Shown here: piece after piece, positions 9,890-28,056 of the stretch
Layout of the letters: each line of letters starts with the position of its first letter
Position numbering within the stretch: position 1 is the first letter of the stretch
Sequence record: PX880099.1
Reading direction: 5' to 3' (one strand)
DNA: 64,000 nt
From: a phage
Program-made: the position numbers and the translations under genes
Notes under the pieces: model-generated
Seen by the model: the letters and a program-made list of their open reading frames with translations, nothing else
What the model was told of the DNA's origin: nothing
The model's database searches: none

Positions 9890-9899
9890 TGGAGGTAAT

Positions 9900-15233: not shown

Positions 15234-15418
15234 TTACAAAAGTGAAAGTTGAAAACCAAAATTTAAAGTTTAGGAAAATTATCTTAAAATGTTAGATACA
15301 AAACAAAACTCAAAAGTCAAGGAAAATTTTAAAAATTTTGCGCGCCCACAGTATTTAAAGTTTTTTTGCTTTTACAAAAATGAAAGTACAAAAGCAAAAT
15401 TTAAAGTTTACAAAAATT
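15234..15418. repeat. pair of about 48-bp direct repeats (15234-15280 and 15371-15418) in an AT-rich non-coding region
   Basis: TTTACAAAAGTGAAAGTTGAAAACCAAAATTTAAAGTTTAGGAAAATT vs TTTACAAAAATGAAAGTACAAAAGCAAAATTTAAAGTTTACAAAAATT. Confidence 0.6.
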
Positions 15419-15433
15419 TTTATGCAGGTGAAA

Positions 15434-15548
15434 ATGAGAAGAGTTCTCATATGGAAATGCAAATGATAATGATTCGCATTTAAGTTTATAAATGAGATTG
15501 ATTCTTATTTAATAAGGTAAATGACAATCATTCTCATTTAGAGAATGA
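15434..15548. promoter_or_regulatory. cluster of palindromic hairpin or operator-like sites built on ATGAGAA/TTCTCAT and AATGAnAAT..ATTCTCAT (Fur-box-like)
   Basis: ATGAGAA-GAG-TTCTCAT (15434-15450), AAATGC-N15-GCATTT (15455-15481), TCATTCTC-ATTTA-GAGAATGA (15528-15548). Confidence 0.45.
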
Positions 15549-15761
15549 CGCGCAGGGGCGGTGTTTGTCTCGCGCTCCCGTGTCCACTCGCCATGTAATA
15601 AGAATAACAGATCCAGCCAGGAAAGCAAGCGATTATTTTATCTTTACATTTCTTTACAAATATATAGCACCCAGCCTACCGGCGATCAACCTTCCAACCA
15701 GTGCCCCCTGGTATGTTAGCCCCGCCTTTACGCCGTGGGGTGGCGCTTCCTCTTCTGTATG
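15541..15761 (-). ncRNA. candidate structured non-coding transcript from a GC-rich island
   Basis: Strong minus-strand promoter at 15768-15796, then about 220 nt of GC-rich sequence with several short stems and no ORF of 60 aa or more on that strand. Confidence 0.25.
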
Positions 15762-15767
15762 TAAAAC

Positions 15768-15796
15768 AGTATAAGCCCGATCCCTGGGCTTGTCAA
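15768..15796 (-). promoter_or_regulatory. sigma70-type promoter on minus strand (TTGACA-17-TATACT)
   Basis: Reverse complement reads TTGACAAGCCCAGGGATCGGGCTTATACT. Confidence 0.5.
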
Positions 15797-15798
15797 GA

Positions 15799-16065
15799 TT
15801 ATTTTTTGTTTTCTTGCCAGGATAGGACACCTAACCAAAAATACATATCGCCCCGCGCCCCTGGTGGTATCTTGCTTTCCCCGCCGCCACTGCAAGCCCA
15901 TAGATAACCATTTGCGAACGTATCAAAATGATCTATCTCTTCCACCTTATGATCGCCCAGGTTGAGAACGGTTTCAACCTTTAAGCCCGTTGCGCTTGCT
16001 ACCTGGTGCACCGTGCCGCCTTGCCAGCCCAATGAGTGCATAAGGTGTAATGTAGTATTTGTCAT
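15799..16065 (-). CDS. hypothetical protein (GC-rich, compositionally atypical)
   Basis: 88 aa ORF with upstream minus-strand TTGCTA-17-TATTAT promoter and a GCGCC..GGCGC hairpin in the leader. Confidence 0.35.
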   Translation of the reverse strand: MTNTTLHLMHSLGWQGGTVHQVASATGLKVETVLNLGDHKVEEIDHFDTFANGYLWACSGGGESKIPPGARGDMYFWLGVLSWQENKK

Positions 16066-16173
16066 GATATCGCCCTTTCTTTGTTGTGCGCCCTGGTTGG
16101 CGCGGTAGAAAGATAATAGCCCTTTTCTTTATATATAGCAAGCAAAAAGAAAATAAAAAAGATTGAAAAATGG

Positions 16174-16230
16174 TTGACGTTAACCAGGCGGCGGCGTAGT
16201 ATTCATCTTGTAGGGCGGCAATGGTGCCGC
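16174..16230 (+). promoter_or_regulatory. PeSL-like cassette 1: early promoter plus GC hairpin
   Basis: TTGACG-N17-TAGTAT, then GCGGCA-ATGG-TGCCGC. Confidence 0.6.
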
Positions 16231-16251
16231 TCACTATTTGGAGTTAAGATC

Positions 16252-16449
16252 ATGGCAACATTGCACATTGTGGCGAAAGCTGGACAAATCAACGTAGTGG
16301 TAAACGGTTTTACTGAGTTCAGTCACCCCCAGGATGATCATGAAACGGTTTTATCTTTCATTGATTCCCTGTTAGAAATGGGAGTCATTACAGAAGACCA
16401 GCACGCTACAAAATGCAAGCGCGTTAATCAAATTGTAGGAATAGAATAA
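16252..16449 (+). CDS. small early protein
   Basis: 65 aa; start at ATG (MATLHIV); track extension is read-through of the hairpin. Confidence 0.5.
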   Translation: MATLHIVAKAGQINVVVNGFTEFSHPQDDHETVLSFIDSLLEMGVITEDQHATKCKRVNQIVGIE

Positions 16450-16455
16450 AAAGTA

Positions 16456-16515
16456 TTGACAACAAACAACAACCTGATAAGATGTATCACATAGGGCGGC
16501 GGAATGGTCCACCGC
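16456..16515 (+). promoter_or_regulatory. PeSL-like cassette 2
   Basis: TTGACA-16-TAAGAT, hairpin GCGGCGG-AATGGT-CCACCGC, conserved leader CACAACAGAAGAGAGATTATCA. Confidence 0.65.
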
Positions 16516-16540
16516 TCACAACAGAAGAGAGATTATCATC

Positions 16541-16813
16541 ATGGCATCATATAGCGCAACAATGATCGTAGCTGGCACCACTGGTAAACCTATGCGCGGT
16601 GGCGGATCTTTCGCTAATATCAATATTGACGGGCGTTTATCCCTGGACGCAGCGATCACCGTGGCGCGGGAAACATTTAAGAAAGAATGTAAATTCAATA
16701 AACAAGATTATCTCGGTTTTGCTATTGAAAAAACCGCGCGCTTTGTTGATTATAAAAGCCCGAAAATGGTTGACACTACATTAAAAGCGCAAGATGTAGC
16801 GTTTTTGCTTTAA
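16541..16813 (+). CDS. small early protein
   Basis: 90 aa ORF behind PeSL leader. Confidence 0.55.
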   Translation: MASYSATMIVAGTTGKPMRGGGSFANINIDGRLSLDAAITVARETFKKECKFNKQDYLGFAIEKTARFVDYKSPKMVDTTLKAQDVAFLL

Positions 16814-16816
16814 GGC

Positions 16817-16871
16817 TTGACATTAACGAATAATTTGTTAATATGTTACATAAAGCGGGAATAGTTCCCGC
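16817..16871 (+). promoter_or_regulatory. PeSL-like cassette 3
   Basis: TTGACA-16-TAATAT, hairpin GCGGGAA-TAG-TTCCCGC. Confidence 0.65.
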
Positions 16872-16889
16872 TATTTGTAAGGTGGTAGA

Positions 16890-17147
16890 ATGTTTTACAT
16901 CAAATTAAAAGGTCACGTGATCGCGTTCAAAGATAACGCTTTTTACAGATTAGCAAAATATGCGTTAATACATCCCCACTATGTTTATATAAGGGGGCGT
17001 GATGAAATAAATATCTTTGATCAAACAACATGCGAGAACATCGAGATCCGCAAGGTTGGCGTACGTGATTATCGTACATCTTTCTACCCTTGCAAGGATT
17101 CAGCAAGTCTTTTTAAAGTATGCCAATTGTTGAAAAAAGGTGGTTAA
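16890..17147 (+). CDS. small early protein
   Basis: 85 aa ORF. Confidence 0.5.
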   Translation: MFYIKLKGHVIAFKDNAFYRLAKYALIHPHYVYIRGRDEINIFDQTTCENIEIRKVGVRDYRTSFYPCKDSASLFKVCQLLKKGG

Positions 17148-17148
17148 T

Positions 17149-17706
17149 ATGGGCCGCGAATATGTGATCCAGTCTTGGGTAAAACATGAAGCAGATGATC
17201 CGCGCATCATTCCCGATCATCTTATCGATGAATCCACGGGATATAGTGGTGAGCAAATAGGTAACAGATTAGCACGTAGTAACGGCAACGTAAAAGCGCG
17301 TTATGTGCGCCCTGGCTGGCTGGCAAATGGTAACGCTGATTTATCCAGTGCGGAAGATGCGAGCGACGGCGCGAAAGATAATCCTTTGTACAAAGTTGAT
17401 CCAGCTTTTCGTGTCCTGGATGAATACCCCAGCAAGATAGCGGCGCTCGATCAGGCCCTGGAAAGTAAGCGCATCACCTGGACCGCTTACAACATGGCAA
17501 AAAACGTACTTGATGGTAAATTGATTCAAGCTGAAAGAAAATTAGCCAAAATTGCAGCCATAGCCCAGGAGGAAGACGAGGAGACAACGGAAGAGGAAGA
17601 GTACGAAGAGATCCCGCCGTTGTTGTGTGTTGATGCTTTTCCTGATTATCAGCCGACAGAGGAAGAAAAAAGGATCGCACTAGAAAACTTTGAAAATAGT
17701 CTTTGA
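17149..17706 (+). CDS. hypothetical protein with acidic C-terminal tail
   Basis: 185 aa; ATG after AAAGGTGG. Confidence 0.5.
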   Translation: MGREYVIQSWVKHEADDPRIIPDHLIDESTGYSGEQIGNRLARSNGNVKARYVRPGWLANGNADLSSAEDASDGAKDNPLYKVDPAFRVLDEYPSKIAALDQALESKRITWTAYNMAKNVLDGKLIQAERKLAKIAAIAQEEDEETTEEEEYEEIPPLLCVDAFPDYQPTEEEKRIALENFENSL

Positions 17707-17760
17707 CATATCGCCGCCACTGGCATAATATTTACCACGTAGGGCGGCAATGGTGCCGCT
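17704..17760 (+). promoter_or_regulatory. PeSL-like cassette 4
   Basis: TTGACA-17-TAATAT, hairpin GCGGCA-ATGG-TGCCGC. Confidence 0.65.
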
Positions 17761-17788
17761 CATAGTGAAATTATGCAAGAGGCTTACA

Positions 17789-17884
17789 ATGATTAATAAA
17801 GAAAATAGCTTGACGGTTGGAACGATTAACGCTATCATTCTAGCCGTTCCATTTTGGGTTGTAGTAGCGGCTATTATTTTCTAA
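17789..17884 (+). CDS. hydrophobic micro-protein (31 aa)
   Basis: Hand-translated MINKENSLTVGTINAIILAVPFWVVVAAIIF between two PeSLs. Confidence 0.3.
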   Translation: MINKENSLTVGTINAIILAVPFWVVVAAIIF

Positions 17885-17892
17885 AAATATTC

Positions 17893-17953
17893 TTGACAAC
17901 GTTTTTTAATCTGATAAGATGTATCACGTAGGGCGGCGGAATACTTCCCCGCC
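17893..17953 (+). promoter_or_regulatory. PeSL-like cassette 5
   Basis: TTGACA-16-TAAGAT, hairpin GGCGG(C)GGAA-TAC-TTCCCCGCC. Confidence 0.65.
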
Positions 17954-17974
17954 AAAACAAAAAAGGGTAACACA

Positions 17975-18337
17975 ATGAGCAAGCAAATCAATACTATCAT
18001 GTTTAATCTGGTATCTTTCCGCGATGATATGAAAAATTTACCACGTGAAACGGTTGATATTCATGTTTCAGCTTATCGCGCCCTTATTGACATGTTACCG
18101 CTAAAACGTGATCAACATGCCGCTAATATGATGCTTAATGCTATGCTTAAAAAGATGATTCAAACGGATCTTACTCTGGCGTATGAGTATCAAGGGCGCT
18201 TATATGCGACTTACAACAAAGCGGTACCTGGTCTGGGAAGTACCGAAGAGTTGCACGGCTTAAACCTGGATCAAAACACTTGGGATAGTATGCGCCGCGT
18301 TATGGTATGGGCCGAAAGCGGTAAAATTTACGAATAA
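17975..18337 (+). CDS. small early protein
   Basis: 120 aa ORF. Confidence 0.55.
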   Translation: MSKQINTIMFNLVSFRDDMKNLPRETVDIHVSAYRALIDMLPLKRDQHAANMMLNAMLKKMIQTDLTLAYEYQGRLYATYNKAVPGLGSTEELHGLNLDQNTWDSMRRVMVWAESGKIYE

Positions 18338-18343
18338 AAACGG

Positions 18344-18400
18344 TTGACACTGTTTAAACTTCTGGTATAGTTTATCACGTAGGGCGGCAATGGTGCCGCC
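18344..18400 (+). promoter_or_regulatory. PeSL-like cassette 6
   Basis: TTGACA-16-TATAGT, hairpin GGCGGCA-ATGG-TGCCGCC. Confidence 0.65.
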
Positions 18401-18420
18401 AACAATAAAAGGTTAACATC

Positions 18421-18600
18421 ATGGCTATCATTGCAAAAACTGAGATTATAGGTTTAGATTCGATCCTCCTGGCTTATGAGGAAACTTTAAAAATGTATGT
18501 AGTGACCTATGGTGATTATGTGCGTGAATACGAATACATTGATCTTGCTTTCGAATGTTACATTCGCCAGGTCAATAAAGCCTATAATGATTATCGTTAA
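18421..18600 (+). CDS. small early protein (59 aa)
   Basis: Hand-translated MAIIAKTEIIGLDS...; conserved ATGGCTATC start. Confidence 0.45.
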   Translation: MAIIAKTEIIGLDSILLAYEETLKMYVVTYGDYVREYEYIDLAFECYIRQVNKAYNDYR

Positions 18601-18619
18601 AAGTTTTAGTCTTATACTA

Positions 18620-18671
18620 TTGACAATGAGTGATAGTATAAGCATAATAACTTTTATCGGGAATACTTCCC
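18620..18671 (+). promoter_or_regulatory. PeSL-like cassette 7 (shortened hairpin)
   Basis: TTGACA-17-CATAAT, hairpin GGGAA-TAC-TTCCC. Confidence 0.5.
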
Positions 18672-18697
18672 ACTAACCAAAAAGAGAGAGTGACACC

Positions 18698-19063
18698 ATG
18701 GCTATTAATATCAATGTTTCCGCTTATGCTACCCTGGCTAACACGGCTAAAATTGAATTATCCAGCATTGAGGCGGTGCATATTAGCGCCCGTCGCTGGT
18801 TTCAACAGTCCTACGGTAACACATATTTTTCTTTAATGGTTGACGTTGAGATCGGCGGTAAACTGATCGAGGTGGTTAACGTTCCGTTTCAATATGGCTA
18901 TGGTGATCATTTTGATACCGTCGCCCTGGAAGAATTTAGCAAGGTTATCAACCTTGAGGGCAAGGAATTTTCACGCGGCGCGTATCTTTCCCGTTTTTGC
19001 CGTGACAATGGGATCACTGTATACAGTCATGCAAGCGATGTAAAACGTAAAAAAGATTTATAA
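18698..19063 (+). CDS. small early protein
   Basis: 121 aa ORF, MAIN start. Confidence 0.55.
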   Translation: MAININVSAYATLANTAKIELSSIEAVHISARRWFQQSYGNTYFSLMVDVEIGGKLIEVVNVPFQYGYGDHFDTVALEEFSKVINLEGKEFSRGAYLSRFCRDNGITVYSHASDVKRKKDL

Positions 19064-19069
19064 AAAGCA

Positions 19070-19128
19070 TTGACAGCACGAATAAAAAGAGTAAACTGTA
19101 TTACATAGAGAGCGGGAATAGTTCCCGC
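19070..19128 (+). promoter_or_regulatory. PeSL-like cassette 8
   Basis: TTGACA-16-TAAACT, hairpin GCGGGAA-TAG-TTCCCGC. Confidence 0.65.
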
Positions 19129-19152
19129 CTCATTCAAAGAGAGATTATCATC

Positions 19153-19392
19153 ATGGCTATTACTAAAACTTACAACGGTCACAAAAACAAAACTCACTGG
19201 AATGTAAGCCTTTGGATTAATAACGACGAATCATTATATCGGTTGGCGAAAGAATTTATCGCCGCTAATACTAATCGTAATGATGCTGCCCGTGATATGA
19301 TGTTATTCCTGGAACAAACTGGACAAGATAAAACTCCAGACGGTTTCAAGTATAGCACTACAGCGATCCGCGCCGCGATGGTTGGAATGTAA
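19153..19392 (+). CDS. small early protein
   Basis: 79 aa ORF, MAIT start. Confidence 0.55.
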   Translation: MAITKTYNGHKNKTHWNVSLWINNDESLYRLAKEFIAANTNRNDAARDMMLFLEQTGQDKTPDGFKYSTTAIRAAMVGM

Positions 19393-19401
19393 TAAAAACA
19401 G

Positions 19402-19461
19402 TTGACAACGTTTAAAATTAGTGTAAGATGTATCACATAGGGCGGGAAGTGGTTTCCCGCC
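19402..19461 (+). promoter_or_regulatory. PeSL-like cassette 9
   Basis: TTGACA-16-TAAGAT, hairpin GGCGGGAA-GTGGT-TTCCCGCC. Confidence 0.65.
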
Positions 19462-19483
19462 AACAACAGAGAGATTAAAGATT

Positions 19484-19711
19484 ATGGCTATCAATATTGT
19501 TCGCGTATCCGGCACCGTTGGCACTTCCCAGGTTATTGCAGTTGTAACAAACAAAAAGATTAATGATGTATGTGAGATCTTGAATAAGTGGGCTATTGCT
19601 AATTTTGGGGAATATGCAAGCGTCGAGTACATCGAATCCTACCAGGTGCCAACCATCAGCCTGACCGATCTCAACGTTGATCGCCTGTTATGCCTGGATG
19701 AATTAATCTGA
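19484..19711 (+). CDS. small early protein
   Basis: 75 aa ORF, MAIN start. Confidence 0.55.
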   Translation: MAINIVRVSGTVGTSQVIAVVTNKKINDVCEILNKWAIANFGEYASVEYIESYQVPTISLTDLNVDRLLCLDELI

Positions 19712-19720
19712 AAAAGATTG

Positions 19721-19776
19721 TTGACACGGGAAAGAAAAAGAGTAAACTGTATTACGTAGGGCGGCAATAGTGCCGC
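19721..19776 (+). promoter_or_regulatory. PeSL-like cassette 10
   Basis: TTGACA-16-TAAACT, hairpin GCGGCA-ATAG-TGCCGC. Confidence 0.65.
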
Positions 19777-19801
19777 TCACAACAGAAGAGAGATTATCAC
19801 G

Positions 19802-20014
19802 ATGGCTAATATCCGCACACTGTTAAAAAATGCAAGTCAAGTTTTATTTTCTGATCACGATCATTTTAATAAAGATATTACAGGCGTGAAGAATATCAAA
19901 GATGTAAAAAGTGTTATGGGTATATATTGCAATGTTAAACGTGTTGGAACGTTCGGTGATAAAGTATTGTACCAATCAGGTGATTACAATTTTACTTTGA
20001 CGATTATTTCATAA
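19802..20014 (+). CDS. small early protein
   Basis: 70 aa ORF. Confidence 0.55.
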   Translation: MANIRTLLKNASQVLFSDHDHFNKDITGVKNIKDVKSVMGIYCNVKRVGTFGDKVLYQSGDYNFTLTIIS

Positions 20015-20019
20015 AACGC

Positions 20020-20081
20020 TTGCAATACTGCAAAAATAAAGTAAACTGTATTACATCAAGGCGGCGGAATGGTCCACCGCC
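20020..20081 (+). promoter_or_regulatory. PeSL-like cassette 11
   Basis: TTGCAA-16-TAAACT, hairpin GGCGGCGGA-ATGG-TCCACCGCC. Confidence 0.6.
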
Positions 20082-20105
20082 TAACAAAGAGAAGAGGAAA
20101 ATATT

Positions 20106-20273
20106 ATGATCACTTTCGCTACCCGTGAAGCCGCTCGCAACGTTGCACGTAAAGTTAACGCCGCCAACCTGGGCGCTACGCTTAAAGCCCCTGTAAAAGA
20201 TGAATCAGGAAAATGGATCTTCCCTGGTCTACGTCATGCTGACAAGTTAGGTACTTTAAGCCTTAAAAAATAA
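20106..20273 (+). CDS. small early protein (55 aa)
   Basis: Hand-translated MITFATREAARNVARKVNAANLG...; shares its first 16 nt with the gene at 20526. Confidence 0.45.
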   Translation: MITFATREAARNVARKVNAANLGATLKAPVKDESGKWIFPGLRHADKLGTLSLKK

Positions 20274-20276
20274 TCG

Positions 20277-20313
20277 TTGACTTTTCGTTATAGCGCCTTA
20301 TAATGGGCGCTAT
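20277..20313 (+). promoter_or_regulatory. promoter with palindrome overlapping the -10 (operator-like)
   Basis: TTGACT-16-TATAAT; inverted repeat ATAGCGCC-N8-GGCGCTAT spans the -10. Confidence 0.45.
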
Positions 20314-20350
20314 AGAGAAGAGAAACCAGTCACAACAGAGAGAAAATATC

Positions 20351-20512
20351 ATGACCAATAAAGAAAAAGCCATCATTAAAGCACATTATCCACATCTAAC
20401 ATTACGTTTTAAAGCCGATGGATCTGTTATGGCCTCCAGTGGGCGCGGGTATGCTTACGGTTTACTTTACACCGCACAACAAGCGCAAGATCATTTAAAC
20501 GCAGTAAAATAA
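20351..20512 (+). CDS. small early protein (53 aa)
   Basis: ATG (MTNKEKAII) after AGAGAGA; track start is upstream read-through. Confidence 0.45.
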   Translation: MTNKEKAIIKAHYPHLTLRFKADGSVMASSGRGYAYGLLYTAQQAQDHLNAVK

Positions 20513-20525
20513 CAAGGAAACCATT

Positions 20526-20747
20526 ATGATCACTTTCGCTATTGTCGCCGTTGTTGCTGGTCAAGTTTACGTAAATGAGACATTTACTACAGAAGACAAG
20601 GCAGCAGGAGATATAACCGCCGTTTACAATGAGTGCAAGGCAGTAGAAAGGATGTTAGCGCCTTGTATGCTAATGAGTGAACGCCAGGACGGAATAACAG
20701 TATTTACTAACATTGGAACAGGGTACCAAATGGTAGTAACAAAATAA
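20526..20747 (+). CDS. small early protein
   Basis: 73 aa ORF, hydrophobic N-terminus MITFAIVAVVAG. Confidence 0.5.
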   Translation: MITFAIVAVVAGQVYVNETFTTEDKAAGDITAVYNECKAVERMLAPCMLMSERQDGITVFTNIGTGYQMVVTK

Positions 20748-20750
20748 AGC

Positions 20751-20807
20751 TTGACACCGATTTAATTTTTAGTAAACTGTTACAGGTAGGGCGGGAATAG
20801 TTCCCGC
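20751..20807 (+). promoter_or_regulatory. PeSL-like cassette 13
   Basis: TTGACA-16-TAAACT, hairpin GCGGGAA-TAG-TTCCCGC. Confidence 0.65.
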
Positions 20808-20826
20808 TCAAAAAGAGAGAAAGACC

Positions 20827-21180
20827 ATGAAAGCACAAAATGCAATTAAAGAGTACATCCTTGCCGCTATCGATTTTAATGATTACGGTATTACAACCGA
20901 AAAAGAGAAGATCGCGGAATTGATGCGCCGTTTTAATTCCGAGTACTGGTACCCTGATAACCAATCACGTTTTAATTATAGTATTGTTAAAGCACTTGCA
21001 TCATGGTTACAAGGTTTGCCATCAGATATCAATATCGCTTTCGAATATTGGGAAATTGATCGCTTGTTAACATCCTGGGGATACATTAAAGAGAATAGCA
21101 GCGATGATAAAATCCAACGAGAAAGGGAAAATTATTGGCTTTATATTGCAGGCGTGATCCTTGCTTGCTCTTATGAATGA
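20827..21180 (+). CDS. small early protein
   Basis: 117 aa ORF. Confidence 0.55.
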   Translation: MKAQNAIKEYILAAIDFNDYGITTEKEKIAELMRRFNSEYWYPDNQSRFNYSIVKALASWLQGLPSDINIAFEYWEIDRLLTSWGYIKENSSDDKIQRERENYWLYIAGVILACSYE

Positions 21181-21186
21181 TAAACC

Positions 21187-21240
21187 TTGACAATTTTACA
21201 AAACAGTTTAAATTAACAATATAGCGGCAATGGTGCCGCT
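21187..21240 (+). promoter_or_regulatory. PeSL-like cassette 14
   Basis: TTGACA-16-TAAATT, hairpin AGCGGCA-ATGG-TGCCGCT. Confidence 0.6.
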
Positions 21241-21259
21241 CATATGAAGAGGAAACAAA

Positions 21260-21406
21260 ATGAATACATCTAATCGCGCAGAAAAAATTCAATCTTCCAA
21301 GATCCGCAAAGCCTGGAACGAGGAAGTGATCCGCAAAGGCGACAAGCGTAATAAAACAAAGCGCGGGAAGAGTGACAAATATAATTGGATGGATTTAGAG
21401 GATTAA
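21260..21406 (+). CDS. small basic protein (48 aa)
   Basis: Hand-translated MNTSNRAEKIQSSKIRKAWN... Confidence 0.4.
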   Translation: MNTSNRAEKIQSSKIRKAWNEEVIRKGDKRNKTKRGKSDKYNWMDLED

Positions 21407-21414
21407 CATAACAA

Positions 21415-21440
21415 GGGCGCATCAAGCGCCCTTTCTTTTT
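21415..21440 (+). terminator. rho-independent terminator
   Basis: GGGCGC-ATCAA-GCGCCC followed by TTTCTTTTT. Confidence 0.65.
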
Positions 21441-21461
21441 ACATGTAGAGGATAAACAAAA

Positions 21462-21647
21462 ATGACTTTAAACGAGCTTAAAACAGCCTACAACGCAACA
21501 TTAAAAATAGCCGTGCGTTACCGTGATGCGTATGGTTTTATCGCGCAGGGCGTGATCCTGGGCTTTTCTGACGATGGTTTGATCTATGTTGATGCACATC
21601 ACAACAAGGTTAAACCTGAAAACGTCATTAGCATAAAATATCTTTAA
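21462..21647 (+). CDS. small early protein
   Basis: 61 aa ORF. Confidence 0.5.
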   Translation: MTLNELKTAYNATLKIAVRYRDAYGFIAQGVILGFSDDGLIYVDAHHNKVKPENVISIKYL

Positions 21648-21653
21648 AAACGG

Positions 21654-21709
21654 TTGACAGCATAACCAAGTATGATAAGATGTATCACATAGGGCGGGAA
21701 TAGTTCCCG
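21654..21709 (+). promoter_or_regulatory. PeSL-like cassette 15
   Basis: TTGACA-16-TAAGAT, hairpin CGGGAA-TAG-TTCCCG. Confidence 0.6.
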
Positions 21710-21732
21710 ACCACATAAAAGAGAAAAACATT

Positions 21733-21945
21733 ATGACCACTATCACAACAAAACAAGAAAAAATTATTACAGACATTGCCGCAGTAGCCGCTATTGCTAT
21801 TATTGGTACCTACTATGACACCGCGCGACCTTCCTCCTTACATGAGATCGCCGCCGTTGCATCAGTTGGCGTACTGTTTTACGTTGGTAAACGCTATTTA
21901 TCACCAATGATTAACAAGCTGACACCGTGGAAAAATAAAGGTTGA
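21733..21945 (+). CDS. small membrane protein
   Basis: 70 aa, hydrophobic core IAAVAAIAIIGTYY...VGVLFYVG. Confidence 0.5.
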   Translation: MTTITTKQEKIITDIAAVAAIAIIGTYYDTARPSSLHEIAAVASVGVLFYVGKRYLSPMINKLTPWKNKG

Positions 21946-21996
21946 TCCTGTTTTATATTGTGTTATAGTTATCGTGTAGGGCGGCAATGGTGCCGC
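21942..21996 (+). promoter_or_regulatory. PeSL-like cassette 16
   Basis: TTGATC-16-TATAGT, hairpin GCGGCA-ATGG-TGCCGC. Confidence 0.6.
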
Positions 21997-22016
21997 GCCC
22001 CTTTGAGGATGCAATC

Positions 22017-22301
22017 ATGCGTAAAGCTAACACCGTGCTAATGTTTTCCCTGATTAATAATGCCGCTTACTTGTCCAACATGACGCAGGAGGGTAACACA
22101 TTAACGGCAACATTCACCAATAAGCTTGACCGAGTGATCATAATCTCACTGAAAACAGTTAGTAAAGGCTTTTACTCGTTAGCTTATCATTGTATCACTG
22201 ACACCGACGAGACAAGCCAGGACTATAGCGCCCCTTTCCCTGAATCAATGGCACGGGAGATCATCGCCGCCGTTGTAAATGATGGTTTGTTTACTGCATA
22301 A
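22017..22301 (+). CDS. small early protein
   Basis: Start at ATG (MRKANTV); track extension is hairpin read-through. Confidence 0.5.
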   Translation: MRKANTVLMFSLINNAAYLSNMTQEGNTLTATFTNKLDRVIIISLKTVSKGFYSLAYHCITDTDETSQDYSAPFPESMAREIIAAVVNDGLFTA

Positions 22302-22318
22302 AATAATTCAGAAAAGGC

Positions 22319-22375
22319 TTGCAATAATTTTCAGACCGTGTATATTTAATTCATAGGGCGGCGGGAATAGTTTCC
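22319..22375 (+). promoter_or_regulatory. PeSL-like cassette 17 (degenerate hairpin)
   Basis: TTGCAA-16-TATATT, weak GGAA..TTCC stem. Confidence 0.4.
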
Positions 22376-22398
22376 TAAGCAAACGAGAGGATTACACG

Positions 22399-22518
22399 AT
22401 GAGCAAGTATACAGTAGAATACACGGTAGAAAATCCGGCAGTATCCGAAGGTAAAAAGATGACATTTGCCATCAGTATAATCGCTTTCGTTATCACTATC
22501 TTATCAATCATCTTATAA
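22399..22518 (+). CDS. hydrophobic micro-protein (39 aa)
   Basis: Hand-translated MSKYTVEYTVENPAVSEGKKMTFAISIIAFVITILSIIL. Confidence 0.35.
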   Translation: MSKYTVEYTVENPAVSEGKKMTFAISIIAFVITILSIIL

Positions 22519-22528
22519 GGTGCGTACT

Positions 22529-22690
22529 ATGAAAACAACAGACATTATCAAAGAGATCGCCCTTGCCGCTGACGTTGAGATCGAGGAAGTGATCGCGCTC
22601 AACCTTACAGAAAACGATCTGCGCAACTATGAAGCGGAAAGCGTGAAAGCAAGCGGCGCGGTCCTGGCATATAATCCGGCTAACAAGTAA
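22529..22690 (+). CDS. small protein (53 aa)
   Basis: Hand-translated MKTTDIIKEIALAADVEIEEV... Confidence 0.4.
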   Translation: MKTTDIIKEIALAADVEIEEVIALNLTENDLRNYEAESVKASGAVLAYNPANK

Positions 22691-22699
22691 GGGGATAAC

Positions 22700-22810
22700 A
22701 TGAATCCAAAAGATATGCAAGCATGGAAAGGGTACGACGATCTAAGCGCCTTGCGCAATAAGTCAAGCCGTAACCTTAGACGGTTGGAAGCAAAGAAAAA
22801 GAAAAAATAG
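22700..22810 (+). CDS. small basic protein (36 aa)
   Basis: Hand-translated MNPKDMQAWKGYDDLSALRNK...KKKKK. Confidence 0.3.
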   Translation: MNPKDMQAWKGYDDLSALRNKSSRNLRRLEAKKKKK

Positions 22811-22811
22811 T

Positions 22812-22867
22812 TTGACAAGTCCGCCTAGTCTGATAATATGTATCTTGTAGGGCGGCAATGGTGCCGC
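22812..22867 (+). promoter_or_regulatory. PeSL-like cassette 18
   Basis: TTGACA-16-TAATAT, hairpin GCGGCA-ATGG-TGCCGC. Confidence 0.65.
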
Positions 22868-22888
22868 TCACAAGAAGAGAGAAAAATC

Positions 22889-23173
22889 ATGAAAATCACA
22901 AAAAGCCTAACTAATTATGCAGCACGTCGCGGATTATGTTTAACCGTTGAAAACTTAGGGAAAGAAGACTTTTTGTGTTTTTGGGAGCTTGAAAATGATT
23001 GCGAGTGGATGTTTTCTTATTCTATCTGCGAAGATCAAAACGGTTGTTTGTTAACCTGGCGCGGTAATATCTATTTACCGGAAGAAATTAAAGAAGAGTT
23101 ACCAGGTACGATCATGACAGAGAGACAGCTTAAGGAAGTGATCAATTTTGTAGGGCAAAACATTAAAAAATAA
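22889..23173 (+). CDS. small early protein
   Basis: Start at ATG (MKITKSL). Confidence 0.5.
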   Translation: MKITKSLTNYAARRGLCLTVENLGKEDFLCFWELENDCEWMFSYSICEDQNGCLLTWRGNIYLPEEIKEELPGTIMTERQLKEVINFVGQNIKK

Positions 23174-23174
23174 T

Positions 23175-23235
23175 TTGACAGTAGGCAAACAACGTAGTAA
23201 AGTTTATTACATAGAGCGGCGGAATGGTCCACCGC
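23175..23235 (+). promoter_or_regulatory. PeSL-like cassette 19
   Basis: TTGACA-17-TAAAGT, hairpin GCGGCGG-AATGGT-CCACCGC. Confidence 0.6.
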
Positions 23236-23258
23236 TCACAACAGAAGAGAAACAAATC

Positions 23259-23429
23259 ATGATCCCGACTATGTTTTATGTATCGCGCAAAGGTCACAAT
23301 ATTTTTTGGTCTGAAGATTTAAATGAAGCTATGACGTTTGCCCGTGATCGTGTTGCTATCGGTGGCGTTAATATCACCGTGACCGATGAAAACGGCATTG
23401 AATACTATAACGGCGATGATGAAGAGTAA
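23259..23429 (+). CDS. small early protein (56 aa)
   Basis: Start at ATG (MIPTMFYV). Confidence 0.45.
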   Translation: MIPTMFYVSRKGHNIFWSEDLNEAMTFARDRVAIGGVNITVTDENGIEYYNGDDEE

Positions 23430-23473
23430 TCAACAAGGCGGGATTAATTCCGCCTATATTAAAGGGTAATACA

Positions 23474-23611
23474 ATGAAAACTTTCAACGCAACAGCCTCG
23501 ACAATTGGTTATATTATTACAGTGCAAGCCGTGGATCTGGTAGCAGCAGCAAACAAGATTAAAAAGATGATCCCGCCAGGTAGTGAATTTTCCGTTTGGG
23601 AAGTAAAATAA
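23474..23611 (+). CDS. small protein (45 aa)
   Basis: Hand-translated MKTFNATASTIGYIITVQAV... Confidence 0.35.
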   Translation: MKTFNATASTIGYIITVQAVDLVAAANKIKKMIPPGSEFSVWEVK

Positions 23612-23614
23612 ACC

Positions 23615-23676
23615 TTGACAATAATTTGTTATCTGGTAAAGTGTATTACGTAGGGCGGGGCAATGGTGCAACGCCC
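23615..23676 (+). promoter_or_regulatory. PeSL-like cassette 20 (variant hairpin)
   Basis: TTGACA-16-TAAAGT, hairpin GGGCG-N13-CGCCC. Confidence 0.5.
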
Positions 23677-23694
23677 ATTAATGAGGGTAGAATC

Positions 23695-23799
23695 ATGTTA
23701 GAGAAAATTTTCACGGTTGTAATAGTGGGCCTGGCGTTATCGGTTGGAGTGGTTGCAACTATGGCTAACATGATCCTATCTTCCCACGGTATCGGTTAA
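23695..23799 (+). CDS. hydrophobic micro-protein (34 aa)
   Basis: MLEKIFTVVIVGLALSVGVVATMANMILSSHGIG. Confidence 0.35.
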   Translation: MLEKIFTVVIVGLALSVGVVATMANMILSSHGIG

Positions 23800-23809
23800 G
23801 GTGAAACAA

Positions 23810-23971
23810 ATGATCACGAACAAAACAGGCAAAACGGAATTTTTACGCGGCTTACAAGTTGGTAAGCCTGAGATCTGGCATTGCACGAAGTCCGCGCATA
23901 ATGAAATGAAAGATTTCACCGCTACTTTACAACGTGTTAAAATATCTATTACGCAGAAAAAGCCTTATTAG
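23810..23971 (+). CDS. small protein (53 aa)
   Basis: Hand-translated MITNKTGKTEFLRGLQVGKP..., SD AAGGTGA. Confidence 0.4.
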   Translation: MITNKTGKTEFLRGLQVGKPEIWHCTKSAHNEMKDFTATLQRVKISITQKKPY

Positions 23972-24020
23972 TAGTAGAAAACGAGATCCCGCAAACCATT
24001 ATTATTGTCGAGCGTACAGC

Positions 24021-24407
24021 ATGAAAACAGAAATCATTAACGAAATCATCAACGGCTATAAAGAAGCCTTTATTTTTGCTGAATCAGCAAGGGATCATGA
24101 AGGTAATTTTATAGATGACATGACTGATTATGATTTTTCAGATCAAGCCCATCAACGGATCGCCCAGGATGTAACAGCCTTTATTAATGCTAATCTTGCC
24201 GCTATCTCTGAGGCAATGAGCGACGGCGCAACAGCCAACCAGATCGGGAATGATTTACATTTTACCCGTAACGGTCACGGCGTAGGATTTTGGGATCGCC
24301 CTGAAATATACACCACTAACACGGCGAACCGCCTAACAAATGCAGCTAAGTTTATGCCGAACGTGTCGGCTTACATTGGTGAAGATAATTTGATTTATAT
24401 TGAATAA
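24021..24407 (+). CDS. hypothetical protein
   Basis: 128 aa from ATG (MKTEIINEI); weak RBS. Confidence 0.45.
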   Translation: MKTEIINEIINGYKEAFIFAESARDHEGNFIDDMTDYDFSDQAHQRIAQDVTAFINANLAAISEAMSDGATANQIGNDLHFTRNGHGVGFWDRPEIYTTNTANRLTNAAKFMPNVSAYIGEDNLIYIE

Positions 24408-24413
24408 AAAGTA

Positions 24414-24470
24414 TTGACACAGATCGCCAGTGTGCTAATATTTACCACGTAGGGCGGCAATGGTGCCGCC
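24414..24470 (+). promoter_or_regulatory. PeSL-like cassette 21
   Basis: TTGACA-16-TAATAT, hairpin GGCGGCA-ATGG-TGCCGCC. Confidence 0.65.
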
Positions 24471-24488
24471 GATAATGAGGAAAATAAA

Positions 24489-24788
24489 ATGGAAACTATC
24501 GCTATTGTTACCGTAGAAAAACTGGTTGTTGGTGATGTGTTCGCGTTAATGGTGCCTAACAGCAGCAAACTGGGCGCTTATGAAGTGATGGACCATAAAA
24601 ATGAATCATTTGGCGACGGTTGCACAATGGCGGTAAAATCCTTAAAGGATGGAATCATCCGCCAGGCTAACTGGCACAAAGGGAATCAAGTCGGTTTAAT
24701 ATCAGCTAATTTCTTGCCAGAAGAGCAAACGTTAGACCAACTATCAGGCGGTAAGACGTTAGCCGAACTACTGGAAACAGCGATCTAA
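24489..24788 (+). CDS. small early protein
   Basis: 99 aa ORF. Confidence 0.55.
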   Translation: METIAIVTVEKLVVGDVFALMVPNSSKLGAYEVMDHKNESFGDGCTMAVKSLKDGIIRQANWHKGNQVGLISANFLPEEQTLDQLSGGKTLAELLETAI

Positions 24789-24796
24789 TCAACAAA

Positions 24797-24812
24797 GGGG
24801 CGGCAACGCCCC
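24797..24812 (+). other. GNRA-loop hairpin (GGGGCG-GCAA-CGCCCC), intergenic
   Basis: Same design as 25079-25094; no T-tract, so RNA stability or processing element rather than a classical terminator. Confidence 0.45.
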
Positions 24813-24832
24813 ACATCAGAAAGGAAAAGATT

Positions 24833-25069
24833 ATGAGTATTGCAACAGTATTAAACGCCGTTAAAACCGCTGAATCATCCGGCTTGCATGTTGAGCTTAT
24901 AGATCAACCAGGTGGCGATCTCCTTGTCCAGGTTTACCCGCCGAAAGTAGGGGATGATTATTATTGGGCTTATTCTGATACGTTCGAACAAGTAGACACG
25001 AAAGCGATCACGGCTTTTATTTTAAAAGCTATTGAAGAAAATAACTTTCATCATAACATCAATCAATAA
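24833..25069 (+). CDS. small early protein
   Basis: 78 aa ORF, SD AAAGGAAAAG. Confidence 0.55.
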   Translation: MSIATVLNAVKTAESSGLHVELIDQPGGDLLVQVYPPKVGDDYYWAYSDTFEQVDTKAITAFILKAIEENNFHHNINQ

Positions 25070-25078
25070 ACCATAAGC

Positions 25079-25094
25079 GGGGCGGTAACGCCCC
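25079..25094 (+). other. GNRA-loop hairpin (GGGGCG-GTAA-CGCCCC), intergenic
   Basis: Paralogous to 24797-24812. Confidence 0.45.
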
Positions 25095-25123
25095 ATTAAA
25101 CGCAATAGGAAGAGGATAGACGC

Positions 25124-25414
25124 ATGAAAAACATGATCGCAGTAGTTGCCCTAGTTGTTGGTATTAACGCGCCTGTACTGGCTAATGAGTTGTCAGAATC
25201 CATCACGCTAACCGATATCAACGCAATAAACCGGATCGGCGTTAATTATCGCCTATGCCTTGCCGCTAAAACTTTCCAGGACGGCACGACAGAATACCAC
25301 GGATTCGAGGGTATCCGCTGCGGTGAGCTTGCACGCGACCTTAAAGAAGATCCAGACCTTGAGGCCATACCGATGACCGTAAACGGTAAAGCTTACGTAA
25401 ACCGCCAACAATGA
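25124..25414 (+). CDS. secreted small protein (signal peptide)
   Basis: MKNMIAVVALVVGINAPVLA signal-like N-terminus. Confidence 0.55.
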   Translation: MKNMIAVVALVVGINAPVLANELSESITLTDINAINRIGVNYRLCLAAKTFQDGTTEYHGFEGIRCGELARDLKEDPDLEAIPMTVNGKAYVNRQQ

Positions 25415-25545
25415 GAAAGGTAATCATCACAATGGGGATCGTAGTAGCAACGCTGGCGCTTATCCCCTTCATGGTTGAACATGTGCTGATCAGTGTTGTC
25501 CTTGTAGTCAGTGACCTATTGGAAACGGTTGGCACCTGGTTTTAA
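25411..25545 (+). CDS. hydrophobic micro-protein (44 aa)
   Basis: Hand-translated MRKVIITMGIVVATLALIPFMVEHVLISVVLVV..., ATGA-coupled. Confidence 0.35.
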   Translation: MRKVIITMGIVVATLALIPFMVEHVLISVVLVVSDLLETVGTWF

Positions 25546-25719
25546 GATAATAAATAGGGCTTGCAATAGTCCTATTTTTTGTTATACTTATTGAACGGGC
25601 GGCACCTGGGAGCAGGTGAAGATAATCACCGGAAGATCCCGCTATATATCGATAGCTAATACCTATCAAACAACAAAACATCAAAGAGATAAACTATCAA
25701 ATCTTTACAATCCTACCTA

Positions 25720-25778
25720 TTGACACCGGATCACGCTTACATTATTATTTATCACGTAGGGCGGGAATGTTTCCCGCC
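25720..25778 (+). promoter_or_regulatory. PeSL-like cassette 22
   Basis: TTGACA-16/17-TATTAT, perfect hairpin GGCGGGAA-TGT-TTCCCGCC. Confidence 0.65.
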
Positions 25779-25796
25779 TGATTTAGGAGTCATATC

Positions 25797-26030
25797 ATGA
25801 TCGAACAAATTAAAAGCACTAAACCAAATGTTAACGGTAATGTTTCTCACTTTATCGGGGATAATGAAAGAGGTACACCGTACGCCGCCGTAACCGTTCA
25901 ACCGAACGGGGATTATTGGTTTACCGTGTACGGATCTTACTCTTTTGGACGTTCGGCACATGATAAGATCTTGCAAGTGGTTAAGCCTACTGGGAAGAAT
26001 ATCACAGCAGAAAAATTTTATAAAAAATAG
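25797..26030 (+). CDS. small early protein
   Basis: 77 aa ORF, SD AGGAG. Confidence 0.55.
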   Translation: MIEQIKSTKPNVNGNVSHFIGDNERGTPYAAVTVQPNGDYWFTVYGSYSFGRSAHDKILQVVKPTGKNITAEKFYKK

Positions 26031-26031
26031 C

Positions 26032-26089
26032 TTGCTTTATATACCCTGTTAACTTATAGTTATTGCGTAGGGCGAGCAATACAGCAAGC
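26032..26089 (+). promoter_or_regulatory. degenerate PeSL-like promoter
   Basis: TTGCTT-17-TATAGT; flanking inverted repeat GCTTGCT...AGCAAGC. Confidence 0.35.
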
Positions 26090-26108
26090 CCACAAAGAGG
26101 AAAATAAA

Positions 26109-26477
26109 ATGAGCAAATCAGCAATTAAAGCACTTGAAAAAGCACAAGAAGTGATCGCAACGTCAACCACTGGCGCAAAGGTTAATCTCGTTTGTTATCT
26201 GACAGATGAAACTATCCGTAAAAATTGGCGTAATGCTGATTTACTGGCTTGCTTATTGATTAATAGTGTCGCTAATGCTTTCCAGTGTGAAACAGCCGAG
26301 AGCCTGGAGGAAAACTTGTTTGATAATATGGATCAAGCCATTGAAACCTATATACAATCAAACCTGGATAGCTGGAACAGTAAAACATGGCCCGACAATT
26401 TACGCGATACAACTGATCAACTGATCCGCCTTGCCCTGATGGTTGAACGCGATAACGTTTACAACAGCACAAAGTAA
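26109..26477 (+). CDS. small early protein
   Basis: 122 aa ORF, SD AAGAGGAAAA. Confidence 0.55.
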   Translation: MSKSAIKALEKAQEVIATSTTGAKVNLVCYLTDETIRKNWRNADLLACLLINSVANAFQCETAESLEENLFDNMDQAIETYIQSNLDSWNSKTWPDNLRDTTDQLIRLALMVERDNVYNSTK

Positions 26478-26487
26478 GATTATACAA

Positions 26488-26507
26488 GGGCGCACTAAGC
26501 GCCCTTT
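26488..26507 (+). terminator. terminator-like hairpin
   Basis: GGGCGC-ACTAA-GCGCCC followed by TTT. Confidence 0.5.
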
Positions 26508-26542
26508 AACGTAAAGAAATGTAAATAATGCGCTATCCCCTA

Positions 26543-26571
26543 TTGACAGGGGATCGGCGTTATATTATATT
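26543..26571 (+). promoter_or_regulatory. sigma70-type promoter with palindrome over the -35
   Basis: TTGACA-17-TATATT; ATCCCCT-ATTGAC-AGGGGAT inverted repeat. Confidence 0.45.
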
Positions 26572-26616
26572 TAACTTACTGGCAGCAAACAACGAAACGA
26601 AACAAAGGACAACATC

Positions 26617-27036
26617 ATGAACATTAAATCAAATAATCCAGCTTACTCCTTCGATAACGCTTTTTGTCACGGTAGCGCCGCCAAAGGCTTCGAAATCGAT
26701 GGTAAATTGGTTATCGTGAACGTTGACGGGGAAGAGGTTGCAGTGTATCCGGTAAACGATGTTAAAAGCCGTTTACAATGCCGCATGGATGTTACCGCAT
26801 ATCAGCTTGATCCGGTCCGTGTAGTTGCCTTGGTGTTAGAGGAAGAGATCAAAGCAATGCATCACAGTAATAAGTTTATTGGTGACGCGCAGGATAATAT
26901 GAACGTTTGCCGCCATAAAGTTAATGAAGCATTGAAAGAATGCGGTTTTAAGGATCTGATGATTAAACGTGATGAAAAATTCCGCTTTCGTAATGACCTG
27001 GCAAACCGGATCTACTCAATCTATGAAGCGTTATAA
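26617..27036 (+). CDS. hypothetical protein
   Basis: 139 aa ORF, SD AAAGGACAA. Confidence 0.55.
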   Translation: MNIKSNNPAYSFDNAFCHGSAAKGFEIDGKLVIVNVDGEEVAVYPVNDVKSRLQCRMDVTAYQLDPVRVVALVLEEEIKAMHHSNKFIGDAQDNMNVCRHKVNEALKECGFKDLMIKRDEKFRFRNDLANRIYSIYEAL

Positions 27037-27051
27037 TTGACAACAAAACAA

Positions 27052-27077
27052 GGGCGCACCAAGCGCCCTTTCTTTTT
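27052..27077 (+). terminator. rho-independent terminator
   Basis: GGGCGC-ACCAA-GCGCCC followed by TTTCTTTTT; closes the PeSL gene cluster. Confidence 0.65.
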
Positions 27078-27283
27078 GCCCGAACAATATTGATAGCTTT
27101 CGCCTATGAAAAACCGACACAGAACAAAACTGAATAAATCGCGGTATCGAGCTAATCAACCAGCAAACGAATAACCATACCTCCCAGGGTTACAGGCTGT
27201 TAGAGAGCCATTTAGAGCGGTTAAAATCGATCAACAACCAACAACAAACCATCAAAAACACCCTTTTACCTCCTTTCTAGTGC

Positions 27284-27302
27284 AATGATAACCATTATCA
27301 TC
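27284..27302. promoter_or_regulatory. near-consensus Fur-box-like site
   Basis: AATGATAACCATTATCATC, 15 of 16 positions match the core of GATAATGATAATCATTATC. Confidence 0.4.
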
Positions 27303-28037: not shown

Positions 28038-28056
28038 AATAATAATCATTCTCATA
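28038..28056. promoter_or_regulatory. AATGAnAAT..ATTCTCAT motif copy
   Basis: AATAATAATCATTCTCATA. Confidence 0.35.

Follow-up and report, generated by a model that had tools for sequence, protein, structure and literature searches.

A stretch of 64,000 nucleotides of phage DNA (sequence record PX880099.1), referred to below as the window, carries at 15541-27080 a block of very small genes that differs in base composition from the phage genes around it and lies between non-coding regions sharing a sequence motif. The question raised by this locus is what kind of region the block constitutes and what the shared motif marks. A sequence-only reading had described it as a compositionally distinct, hyperplastic island with regulatory boundaries of its own. 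We consider it probable that the block is an immediate-early host-takeover module located at the right physical end of a linear, terminally repeated genome, with cassettes that serve both expression and shuffling of the genes, with codons like those of the host, and with borders carrying boxes for the host iron regulator Fur. Coordinates of the features are collected in Table 1.

Sequence comparison assigns the window to Phapecoctavirus (Stephanstirmvirinae), a group of phAPEC8/ESCO13-like myoviruses with genomes of ~150 kb. Over the block it is 98.9% identical to Escherichia phage vB_EcoM-Ro121lw, in which all the genes of the region are labelled 'hypothetical'.

Codon usage, cassettes and gene turnover

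That the block is more GC-rich than its flanks was borne out by computation. Among all 525 sliding windows of 11.5 kb in the 64 kb, 15541-27080 ranks highest in GC, at 41.7% compared with 38.6% on either side. Codon usage also departs from uniformity, with GC at third codon positions (GC3) of 0.415 in the 35 block genes and 0.313 in 55 flanking genes (Mann-Whitney p=3e-10), while second positions (GC2) are equal and first positions (GC1) slightly lower in the block. The compositional difference is modest in bulk and sharp at synonymous sites. Codons CGC, ATC, CCG, GGC and TGC are raised and AGA, GGA, CCT, TCT and ATT are lowered; CGC makes up 45% of the arginine codons of the block against 7%, and AGA 5% against 21%. 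Set against E. coli genes, relative synonymous codon usage gives a correlation of r=0.52 in the block and of -0.04 in the flanks. The phage tRNA set includes Arg-UCU, Gly-UCC, Pro-UGG, Thr-UGU and Gln-UUG, and the codons read by these tRNAs are the ones avoided in the block relative to the remaining genome. The shift is one of synonymous codons moved towards host usage and away from the phage-tRNA codons.

The gene map comprises 35 plausible genes, all on the plus strand and with a median length of ~70 aa. They are indeed very short, although one of 185 aa exceeds the claimed range of 31-140 aa, and the many hydrophobic micro-proteins proposed earlier reduce to transmembrane-like segments in about six of the 35 (e.g. 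17789-17884, 22399-22518, 23695-23799 and 25432-25545). Ten proteins were scanned, nine from the block and one from the minus-strand gene of 88 aa at its left border, out of ~36 genes; Pfam yielded no family for them and PHROGs only families of unknown function. In several related records the homologues of the ~70-aa ORFan at 19802-20014 (71 aa in anhysbys) are called 'phosphoribosylpyrophosphate synthetase', which is almost certainly a propagated misannotation.

One conserved cassette stands in front of 19 of the genes, in near-identical units of 60-90 bp and a single orientation, and it was found neither elsewhere in the window nor in the other ~87 kb of the 99%-identical Ro121lw genome. Its consensus is AAAAA..TTGACA-N16/17-TA(A/T)nnT-gTATCAC(G/A)-TAGGGCGG(C/G)AAT(G/A)GT(G/T)CCGC(T/C)CA-..AGAGAGA..-ATG, in which AAT(G/A)GT forms the conserved loop of a GC-rich hairpin. 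The hairpins were evaluated by folding each copy, the MAFFT alignment of hairpins with different stem-length classes being out of structural register and permitting no formal pair count. Their mean stability is -14.1 kcal/mol, and 18 of the 19 fall below -10. Several stem classes stay paired despite changes on both sides. In 16 of 19 copies the plus-strand RNA hairpin is more stable than its complement (Wilcoxon p=0.006), owing to G-U pairs, and this strand bias argues for a role in the transcript rather than as a double-stranded palindrome. The layout of promoter followed by hairpin is shared by phages PVP-SE1, Mydo and W70 of other genera, with stems of unrelated sequence, and the differing stems of phiWec179 are also paired.

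The -10 hexamer ends ~9 nt ahead of the stem, so that transcription would be expected to start 2-5 nt upstream of the hairpin and to place it at the 5' terminus of the RNA. In E. coli, mRNA decay that depends on RNase E/RppH is impeded by stem-loops at the 5' terminus, that of ompA being one example. By analogy, the leader hairpin most likely protects the phage mRNA from 5'-end-dependent decay, and it may attenuate read-through as well.

Cassettes of a comparable kind, termed PeSLs for promoter-early stem-loop, are known from hyperplastic regions of the T4-like phages RB49/phi1, T4/PST and KVP40/nt-1 (Arbiol et al. 2010, PMC2839356; Comeau et al. 2014, PMC4122927), and a hairpin downstream of the -10 hexamer is one of five described PeSL subclasses (PMC2839356). 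Both combine an AT-rich tract, a sigma-70-like early promoter, a GC-rich stem-loop and a Shine-Dalgarno sequence in one intergenic unit, both are concentrated beside small ORFans, and in both indels between close relatives join within cassettes. Unlike the T4 PeSLs, the present cassettes belong to the Stephanstirmvirinae, with the same design in the Vequintavirinae; their hairpin has a fixed position downstream of the -10 hexamer in the transcribed leader, with a conserved loop and without a U-tract, and all copies lie within a single terminal block. The label PeSL is apt here as an analogy, the family having been defined in T4-like phages. At 20277-20320 a variant cassette occurs in which the hairpin ATAGCGCC..GGCGCTAT spans the -10 hexamer rather than the leader, a layout that is commoner in T4-type PeSLs. 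The block is a known kind of region, with hyperplastic early genes and promoter cassettes, in a new lineage and with a distinct cassette design.

The homologous region of the sister subfamily appears in two published accounts. In the Certrevirus phages CB7, CR3, CR8 and CR9, a 'likely early' region dense in sigma-70 promoters and rich in short hypothetical open reading frames (ORFs) was described (Buttimer et al. 2020, PMC7344957), and the map of rV5 carries a 'non-coding' box at this region (PMC3606486). An UP-like A-tract and a consensus promoter are repeated there before the short ORFs, and the passages located there by keyword mention no leader hairpin, codon shift, Fur boxes or conserved non-coding element.

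The description of the block as a hyperplastic accessory region was confirmed. Among the 294 phage records that match it, only 11 do so with coverage of at least 80%, and coverage varies between 58 and 99% among records that are 94-99% identical. Comparison with relatives showed that the block is syntenic in position but not fully conserved in content: pairwise maps against eight relatives revealed whole gene-plus-cassette units gained, lost or replaced (e.g. at 18428-18694, 24816-25079, 25763-26054 and 26507-27048, with insertions at 24435-24469 and 25552). The indel junctions overlap by 7-35 bp, which by sequence is the signature of recombination between repeated cassettes. Eight of 34 distinct breakpoints lie more than 12 nt inside a gene and the other 26 outside gene interiors, although gene interiors constitute 68% of the region (p=1.5e-7), and most of the eight come from the most divergent relative. 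This plasticity matches, by analogy, the PeSL model for T4-like phages (PMC2839356, PMC4122927). Across the block, E. coli phapecoctaviruses share 96% identity with records titled Campylobacter phage (22 in number) and Acinetobacter phage ABPW7, suggesting mislabelled hosts or contaminating coliphages.

Genuine intrinsic terminators of the block occur only at 21413-21433, 25552-25577 and 27050-27070. The first and last are near-identical (AAGGGCGCAnCAAGCGCCCTT plus a T-run), one internal and one at the block end, and these twins could constitute a further repeated unit and candidate mediator of recombination. The phAPEC8 record begins just past the first of them.

Fur boxes and the end of the genome

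The motif reported on both sides of the block is real and exclusive to the borders. At up to three mismatches, AATGANAATNATTNTCATT has nine matches in the window where 1.6 are expected, all of them at 15433-15538 or 27284-28235. A weight matrix built from eight sites gave no match of similar score in the other ~150 kb of the genome, and none of at least 18 bits over ~175 kb of further sequence from phage and E. coli. Relative to phiWec179, in which the non-coding DNA around them is only ~77% identical, the boxes are conserved at 90-100%, and the 29-bp spacing of the left array recurs in Cronobacter phage CR8, Pectobacterium phage phiTE and Proteus phage Mydo.

Several lines of evidence identify the motif as a bacterial Fur operator rather than an anonymous phage sequence. 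The palindrome AATGAGAAT-N-ATTCTCATT occurs verbatim ahead of bacterial genes for TonB receptors, fur, feoB and iron ABC transporters. The relaxed 7-1-7 pattern TGAKAAY-N-AYTMTCA is present at two phage sites, which differ from the canonical core TGATAAT-N-ATTATCA by at most one substitution per half-site; the site at 27286 is one substitution away from that core. The 6-bp-shifted overlapping sites of the phage arrays also resemble the overlapping, clustered Fur sites of E. coli (Chen et al. 2007, PMC2189734). In a reciprocal test, the phage matrix was applied to a 26-kb locus of E. coli K-12 and its best matches were the divergent promoter regions fepA-fes, fepD-entS and fepB-entC, the Fur-controlled ent/fep sites.

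Genes flanking the exact palindrome AATGAGAATNATTCTCATT in bacterial genomes were also examined at 120 loci, with 140 adjacent ORFs and 140 control ORFs from elsewhere in the same loci. Beside the palindrome there were ten Plug/TonB receptors, nine iron-type periplasmic binding proteins, eight FUR family members, eight ECF sigma factors, five ZnuA/SitA-type proteins, four FeoB and two FTR1, whereas none of these was among the top families of the controls. The sequence is, by this bacterial identity, that of a Fur operator. No Fur homologue was found in the phage, within the low sensitivity of a local tblastn search, and the open-access literature searched held no account of Fur boxes in phages of the T5 or V5 type.

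On these sequence grounds we lean slightly towards Fur binding the phage sites. The setting is unlike that of the bacterial regulon, since it is a virulent phage that carries the sites, at the terminus of its genome and where the putative early block has its inner border, and mostly not over a promoter. Only weak promoter-like sites overlap a box, at box 1 (15407-15435) and at box 28216. The boundaries inferred earlier stood in one respect, in that the motif is conserved and confined to the two borders; as to regulation, it is the sites that are observed.

On the minus strand at 27351-27322 there is a promoter-like site matching at nine of 12 positions (TTATCA-18-TATATT), with the Fur box at 27283 lying at about +13..+31; beyond the box, within 27351-27170, follow a strong Shine-Dalgarno sequence, AAGGAGGT, and a hydrophobic ORF of 24 codons. 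This could possibly represent a Fur-controlled micro-gene or leader.

The right border is also the end of the genome. Schickermooser, a close relative, has a terminal repeat of 328 bp (Korf et al. 2019, PMC6563267). In its record the first 329 bp equal the last 329 bp, and they map to 27964-28292 of the window. Other records end nearby, at about 27963, 28216, 28283 and 28291; Ro121lw ends at the first of these, and KKP 3954, WPEC1, ESCO5 and ESCO37 end at ~28216-28291. By this mapping the window spans the junction of the physical genome ends, and given the terminal repeat at the right border the block accounts for the final ~12.8 kb of the linear genome as packaged, or 8.4-8.5% of it. Of the Fur boxes, three are within the terminal repeat at 25-270 bp from the ends, and a fourth is 680 bp further in.

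Other features of the right border were noted. The region 27230-27520 is strand-asymmetric and A-rich (AT skew up to 0.25), with A-rich repeats of CAACAA type at a period of 128 bp (27242, 27370 and 27498). A 24-nt inverted repeat (27619-27642 and 27741-27764) encloses palindromes at 27660-27680 and 27700-27716, about 200-350 bp before the terminal repeat, and could be a packaging or end-processing signal. No DnaA box was found at the right border and there is a single IHF-like match (28122); the left border has neither a DnaA-box nor an IHF consensus.

The left border and neighbouring genes

Long non-coding regions had been said to bracket the block on both sides. This is correct on the right, where 1.54 kb carry no genes and contain the genome terminus; on the left, 15541-16173 holds a conserved element and a minus-strand gene, has 47% GC and is not hyperplastic. 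The element was aligned for PVP-SE1, CR8, phiTE, Mydo and W70, and then for 25 distinct sequences. It has a conserved minus-strand sigma-70-like promoter, TTGACA(15796)-17-TATACT(15768), with a hairpin in the spacer that varies by compensatory changes, and downstream of it a core of ~95 nt in which more than 60 bases are invariant, with the sequence ..CCGGCGATCCACCTTCCAACC..GGTATGTTAGCCCCGCCTTTnCGCCGTGGGGTGGCG.., and one recombinant metagenomic contig retains only the promoter-proximal ~95 nt.

Some records label 15565-15774 as a coding sequence, which is ruled out by indels of 4-6 nt between homologues, in a variable loop of a stretch that is invariant otherwise. Rfam yielded no matches at gathering thresholds in the window and only chance-level ones (E 0.4-4.6) over 14900-16300. 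RNAalifold with six and 19 sequences gave similar energies for both strands and one clearly compensatory pair (A-U to G-C). The element could be a small RNA or a leader that affects transcription, could supply the primer for an origin, or could be a DNA site to which a protein binds. The AT-rich repeat tract on the other side of the Fur-box array looks like an unwinding element or a protein-binding platform.

The left neighbours of the block are plus-strand genes for an AAA ATPase, an endonuclease and the NADAR-domain protein, the last of which is labelled GTP cyclohydrolase II in one relative. To the right, small plus-strand genes resume at 28577, beyond the 1.5 kb without genes.

Table 1. 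Features of the block and its borders, with positions in the window
Feature	Position	Strand	Remarks
NADAR-domain protein	14448-14990	+	PF08719, E=2e-34; final gene before the left border
AT-rich non-coding tract	14991-15431		28% GC over 14991-15540
Two 72-nt AT-rich direct repeats	15209-15280, 15347-15418		82% identical, 138 bp apart; directly left of the Fur-box array
Four 21-bp Fur-box palindromes	15432, 15461, 15490, 15519 (array 15432-15540)		exact 29-bp spacing
Overlapping Fur-box site	15455		shifted 6 bp; within the left array
Conserved non-coding element, ~250 bp	15541-15798	-	conserved across Stephanstirmvirinae and Vequintavirinae
88-aa gene, phrog_19316 (unknown function)	15799-16065	-	conserved in an rV5-like phage
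19 promoter-hairpin cassettes	16174-25785	+	A-rich tract, TTGACA-16/17-TAnnnT, ~9 nt, GC hairpin, Shine-Dalgarno, ATG
Cassette -35 starts, first ten	16174, 16456, 16817, 17703, 17893, 18344, 19070, 19402, 19721, 20751	+
Cassette -35 starts, last nine	21187, 21654, 21942, 22319, 22812, 23175, 23615, 24414, 25720	+
Extra consensus promoters without leader hairpin	17810, 18620, 20277 (hairpin across -10), 26543	+
~35 small ORFan genes, 31-185 aa	16252-27036	+	gene map; good Shine-Dalgarno sequences
Intrinsic terminator, strong	21413-21433	+	AAGGGCGC-loop-GCGCCCTT then T-run; splits the block
Right non-coding region, 1.54 kb	27037-28576		92-98% conserved in Phapecoctavirus; holds Fur boxes and terminal repeat
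Intrinsic terminator, bidirectional	27050-27070	+	end of gene block
Fur box CAATGATAACCATTATCATCT	27283-27303		7-1-7 core; same sequence in the ~77%-identical phiWec179 region
Equivalent of 329-bp direct terminal repeat (physical genome ends)	27964-28292		maps from Schickermooser record ends
Fur boxes within terminal repeat	27988, 28037, 28216

Competing readings of the block and its borders

If the block is a terminal immediate-early module, each tiny ORFan gene or small gene group would be served by its own cassette. The A-rich tract and near-consensus sigma-70 promoter would allow the unmodified host RNA polymerase to fire once the DNA is in the cell, and the mRNA would carry the GC hairpin at its 5' end, ~2-5 nt past the predicted start, with a strong Shine-Dalgarno sequence next. 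The host-like codons would suit genes whose translation precedes the supply of phage-encoded tRNAs (Arg-UCU, Gly-UCC, Pro-UGG and others). Moreover, the near-identical cassettes would act as patches of homology at which recombination adds, deletes or swaps gene-plus-cassette units, giving modular shuffling of the PeSL type. The inner boundary would consist of the conserved non-coding module with its four phased Fur boxes and the outer one of the non-coding region, the terminal repeat and three to four more boxes. Fur-Fe(II) of the host is predicted to occupy these border sites, coupling some border event to host iron status or Fur availability. Candidate consequences include effects on transcription across the border, organisation of DNA ends or loops, and titration of Fur. 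Taken singly, each specific version (iron-gated border transcription, titration by replicating DNA, end or loop organisation, a T5-like checkpoint) is considerably less probable than binding itself.

A number of points weigh against this interpretation. Early timing and the positions of the RNA 5' ends are deduced from promoter geometry. The best phage sites have four to five mismatches to the classical Fur 19-mer GATAATGATAATCATTATC, the conserved 29-bp phasing of the left array is unlike that of typical Fur site clusters, and most boxes are without the strong-promoter overlap seen in classical Fur operators. None of the 19 cassette hairpins is followed by a U-tract, and a terminator role is doubtful for that reason; the stabiliser role is a prediction. 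The codon shift, in turn, could equally reflect incomplete amelioration of newly acquired genes.

The borders might instead belong to the replication and packaging machinery of the phage, with an origin on the left (iterons, AT-rich unwinding tract and primer promoter), terminase or end-processing signals on the right, and palindromes bound by a phage protein and only incidentally Fur-like. The 72-nt AT-rich repeats and the tract of 28% GC beside the phased palindromes fit such a scheme, as does the order of conserved promoter, invariant GC-rich segment and AT-rich TGTAAAGA repeat, which recalls promoter-primed origins; three boxes inside the terminal repeat fit it too. However, the palindrome is letter-for-letter that found ahead of Fur-regulon genes in many bacteria, and GC skew shows no origin-like switch at the site beyond what follows from gene orientation. 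Furthermore, the palindrome is common to unrelated siphoviruses of the T5 type, no shared DNA-binding protein was found, and the phage has no detected Fur homologue of its own. A host factor is the most economical explanation for a palindrome shared by unrelated phages, and we regard the replication and packaging scheme as unlikely.

The link to T5 arose from a distant BLAST search in which the left border matched T5-like phages. The Phapecoctavirus matrix scores palindromes in chee24 (MF431730.1) and T5 (NC_005859.1) at up to 30 bits; they are found in the left terminal repeat, within the large non-coding region at its inner end. Those of chee24 lie at 1040-1560 of the extracted locus; those of T5, at 9551, 9586, 9655 and 9690 (19-29 bits), all lie within the feature 'injection stop signal (iss)' at 9140-10149 and surround the reported shear point near 9618. 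The DRE repeats of T5 Repeat Region 3, in the injection stop signal, have been described as of unknown role (Davison, bioRxiv 10.1101/866236). As judged by sequence, they belong to the same palindrome family as the phage Fur boxes.

This allows a further reading, in which the terminal 12.8 kb would be transferred in a first step, as is the first 8% of the T5 genome. DNA entry or expression would then halt at the inner array of Fur boxes until the early proteins have been produced, and the palindromes would constitute an injection-stop or checkpoint signal possibly read by Fur. Apart from the shared palindromes in conserved non-coding DNA, the distance of the inner array from the end is 8.4-8.5% of the genome, compared with 7.9% in T5, a similarity that is possibly coincidental, and both terminal segments (~8% of the genome) are packed with small genes and strong host-type sigma-70 promoters. 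Both phages also have a high-scoring box ~25-330 bp from the terminus, although in T5 this box, 230 bp from the left end, falls within the coding sequence of dmp, as does that of chee24 at 123 bp.

The differences are considerable. Unlike T5, the present phage has no paired DnaA boxes (TTWTNCACA occurs at neither border) and no IRC/IRD inverted repeats, and its terminal repeat measures 329 bp rather than ~10 kb. Two-step transfer is not known for this phage group, and tblastn of A1, A2 and other T5 pre-early proteins against the whole genome gave nothing below E=0.03, a search of limited sensitivity. Even in T5 the part played by the repeats is only putative. We consider this reading unlikely, slightly more so than a replication and packaging role. 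The same low confidence attaches to its general form, in which T5-like siphoviruses and V5/phAPEC8-like myoviruses would both bracket a terminal, first-expressed ~8% of the genome with host Fur boxes, the DRE repeats would be Fur sites, bound Fur would pause entry or seal off the early segment until early proteins or iron status release it, and V5-like phages would enter stepwise like T5.

Finally, it is very improbable that the block is a horizontally acquired genomic island with a higher GC from a foreign source: its GC and GC3 do exceed those of the remaining genome and its genes are ORFans with high turnover, but a single homogeneous cassette precedes 19 of them, in two subfamilies the block keeps its position beside the conserved element, the window gave no tRNA or tmRNA gene with ARAGORN, the ten proteins scanned, of ~36 genes, held no Pfam family and hence no integrase or mobility domain, and the shift is limited to synonymous sites, towards host codons and away from phage-tRNA codons.

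Understood as a terminal early module, the block documents cassette-shuffled early genes in phages that are not T4-like; here the leader hairpin is fixed and a clean codon split tracks the phage tRNA set. It was unexpected that a virulent phage should carry eight or more high-quality operator sequences of the host iron regulator, confined to the genome ends and the inner border of the early block, and that the injection stop region of T5, long unexplained, should contain the same elements. If Fur does bind, these sites would provide a testable handle on the role of the T5 iss repeats, on the iron dependence of infection by therapeutic phages of the phAPEC8/rV5 type, and on titration of Fur by replicating phage DNA, which would feed the phage's iron-dependent ribonucleotide reductases.

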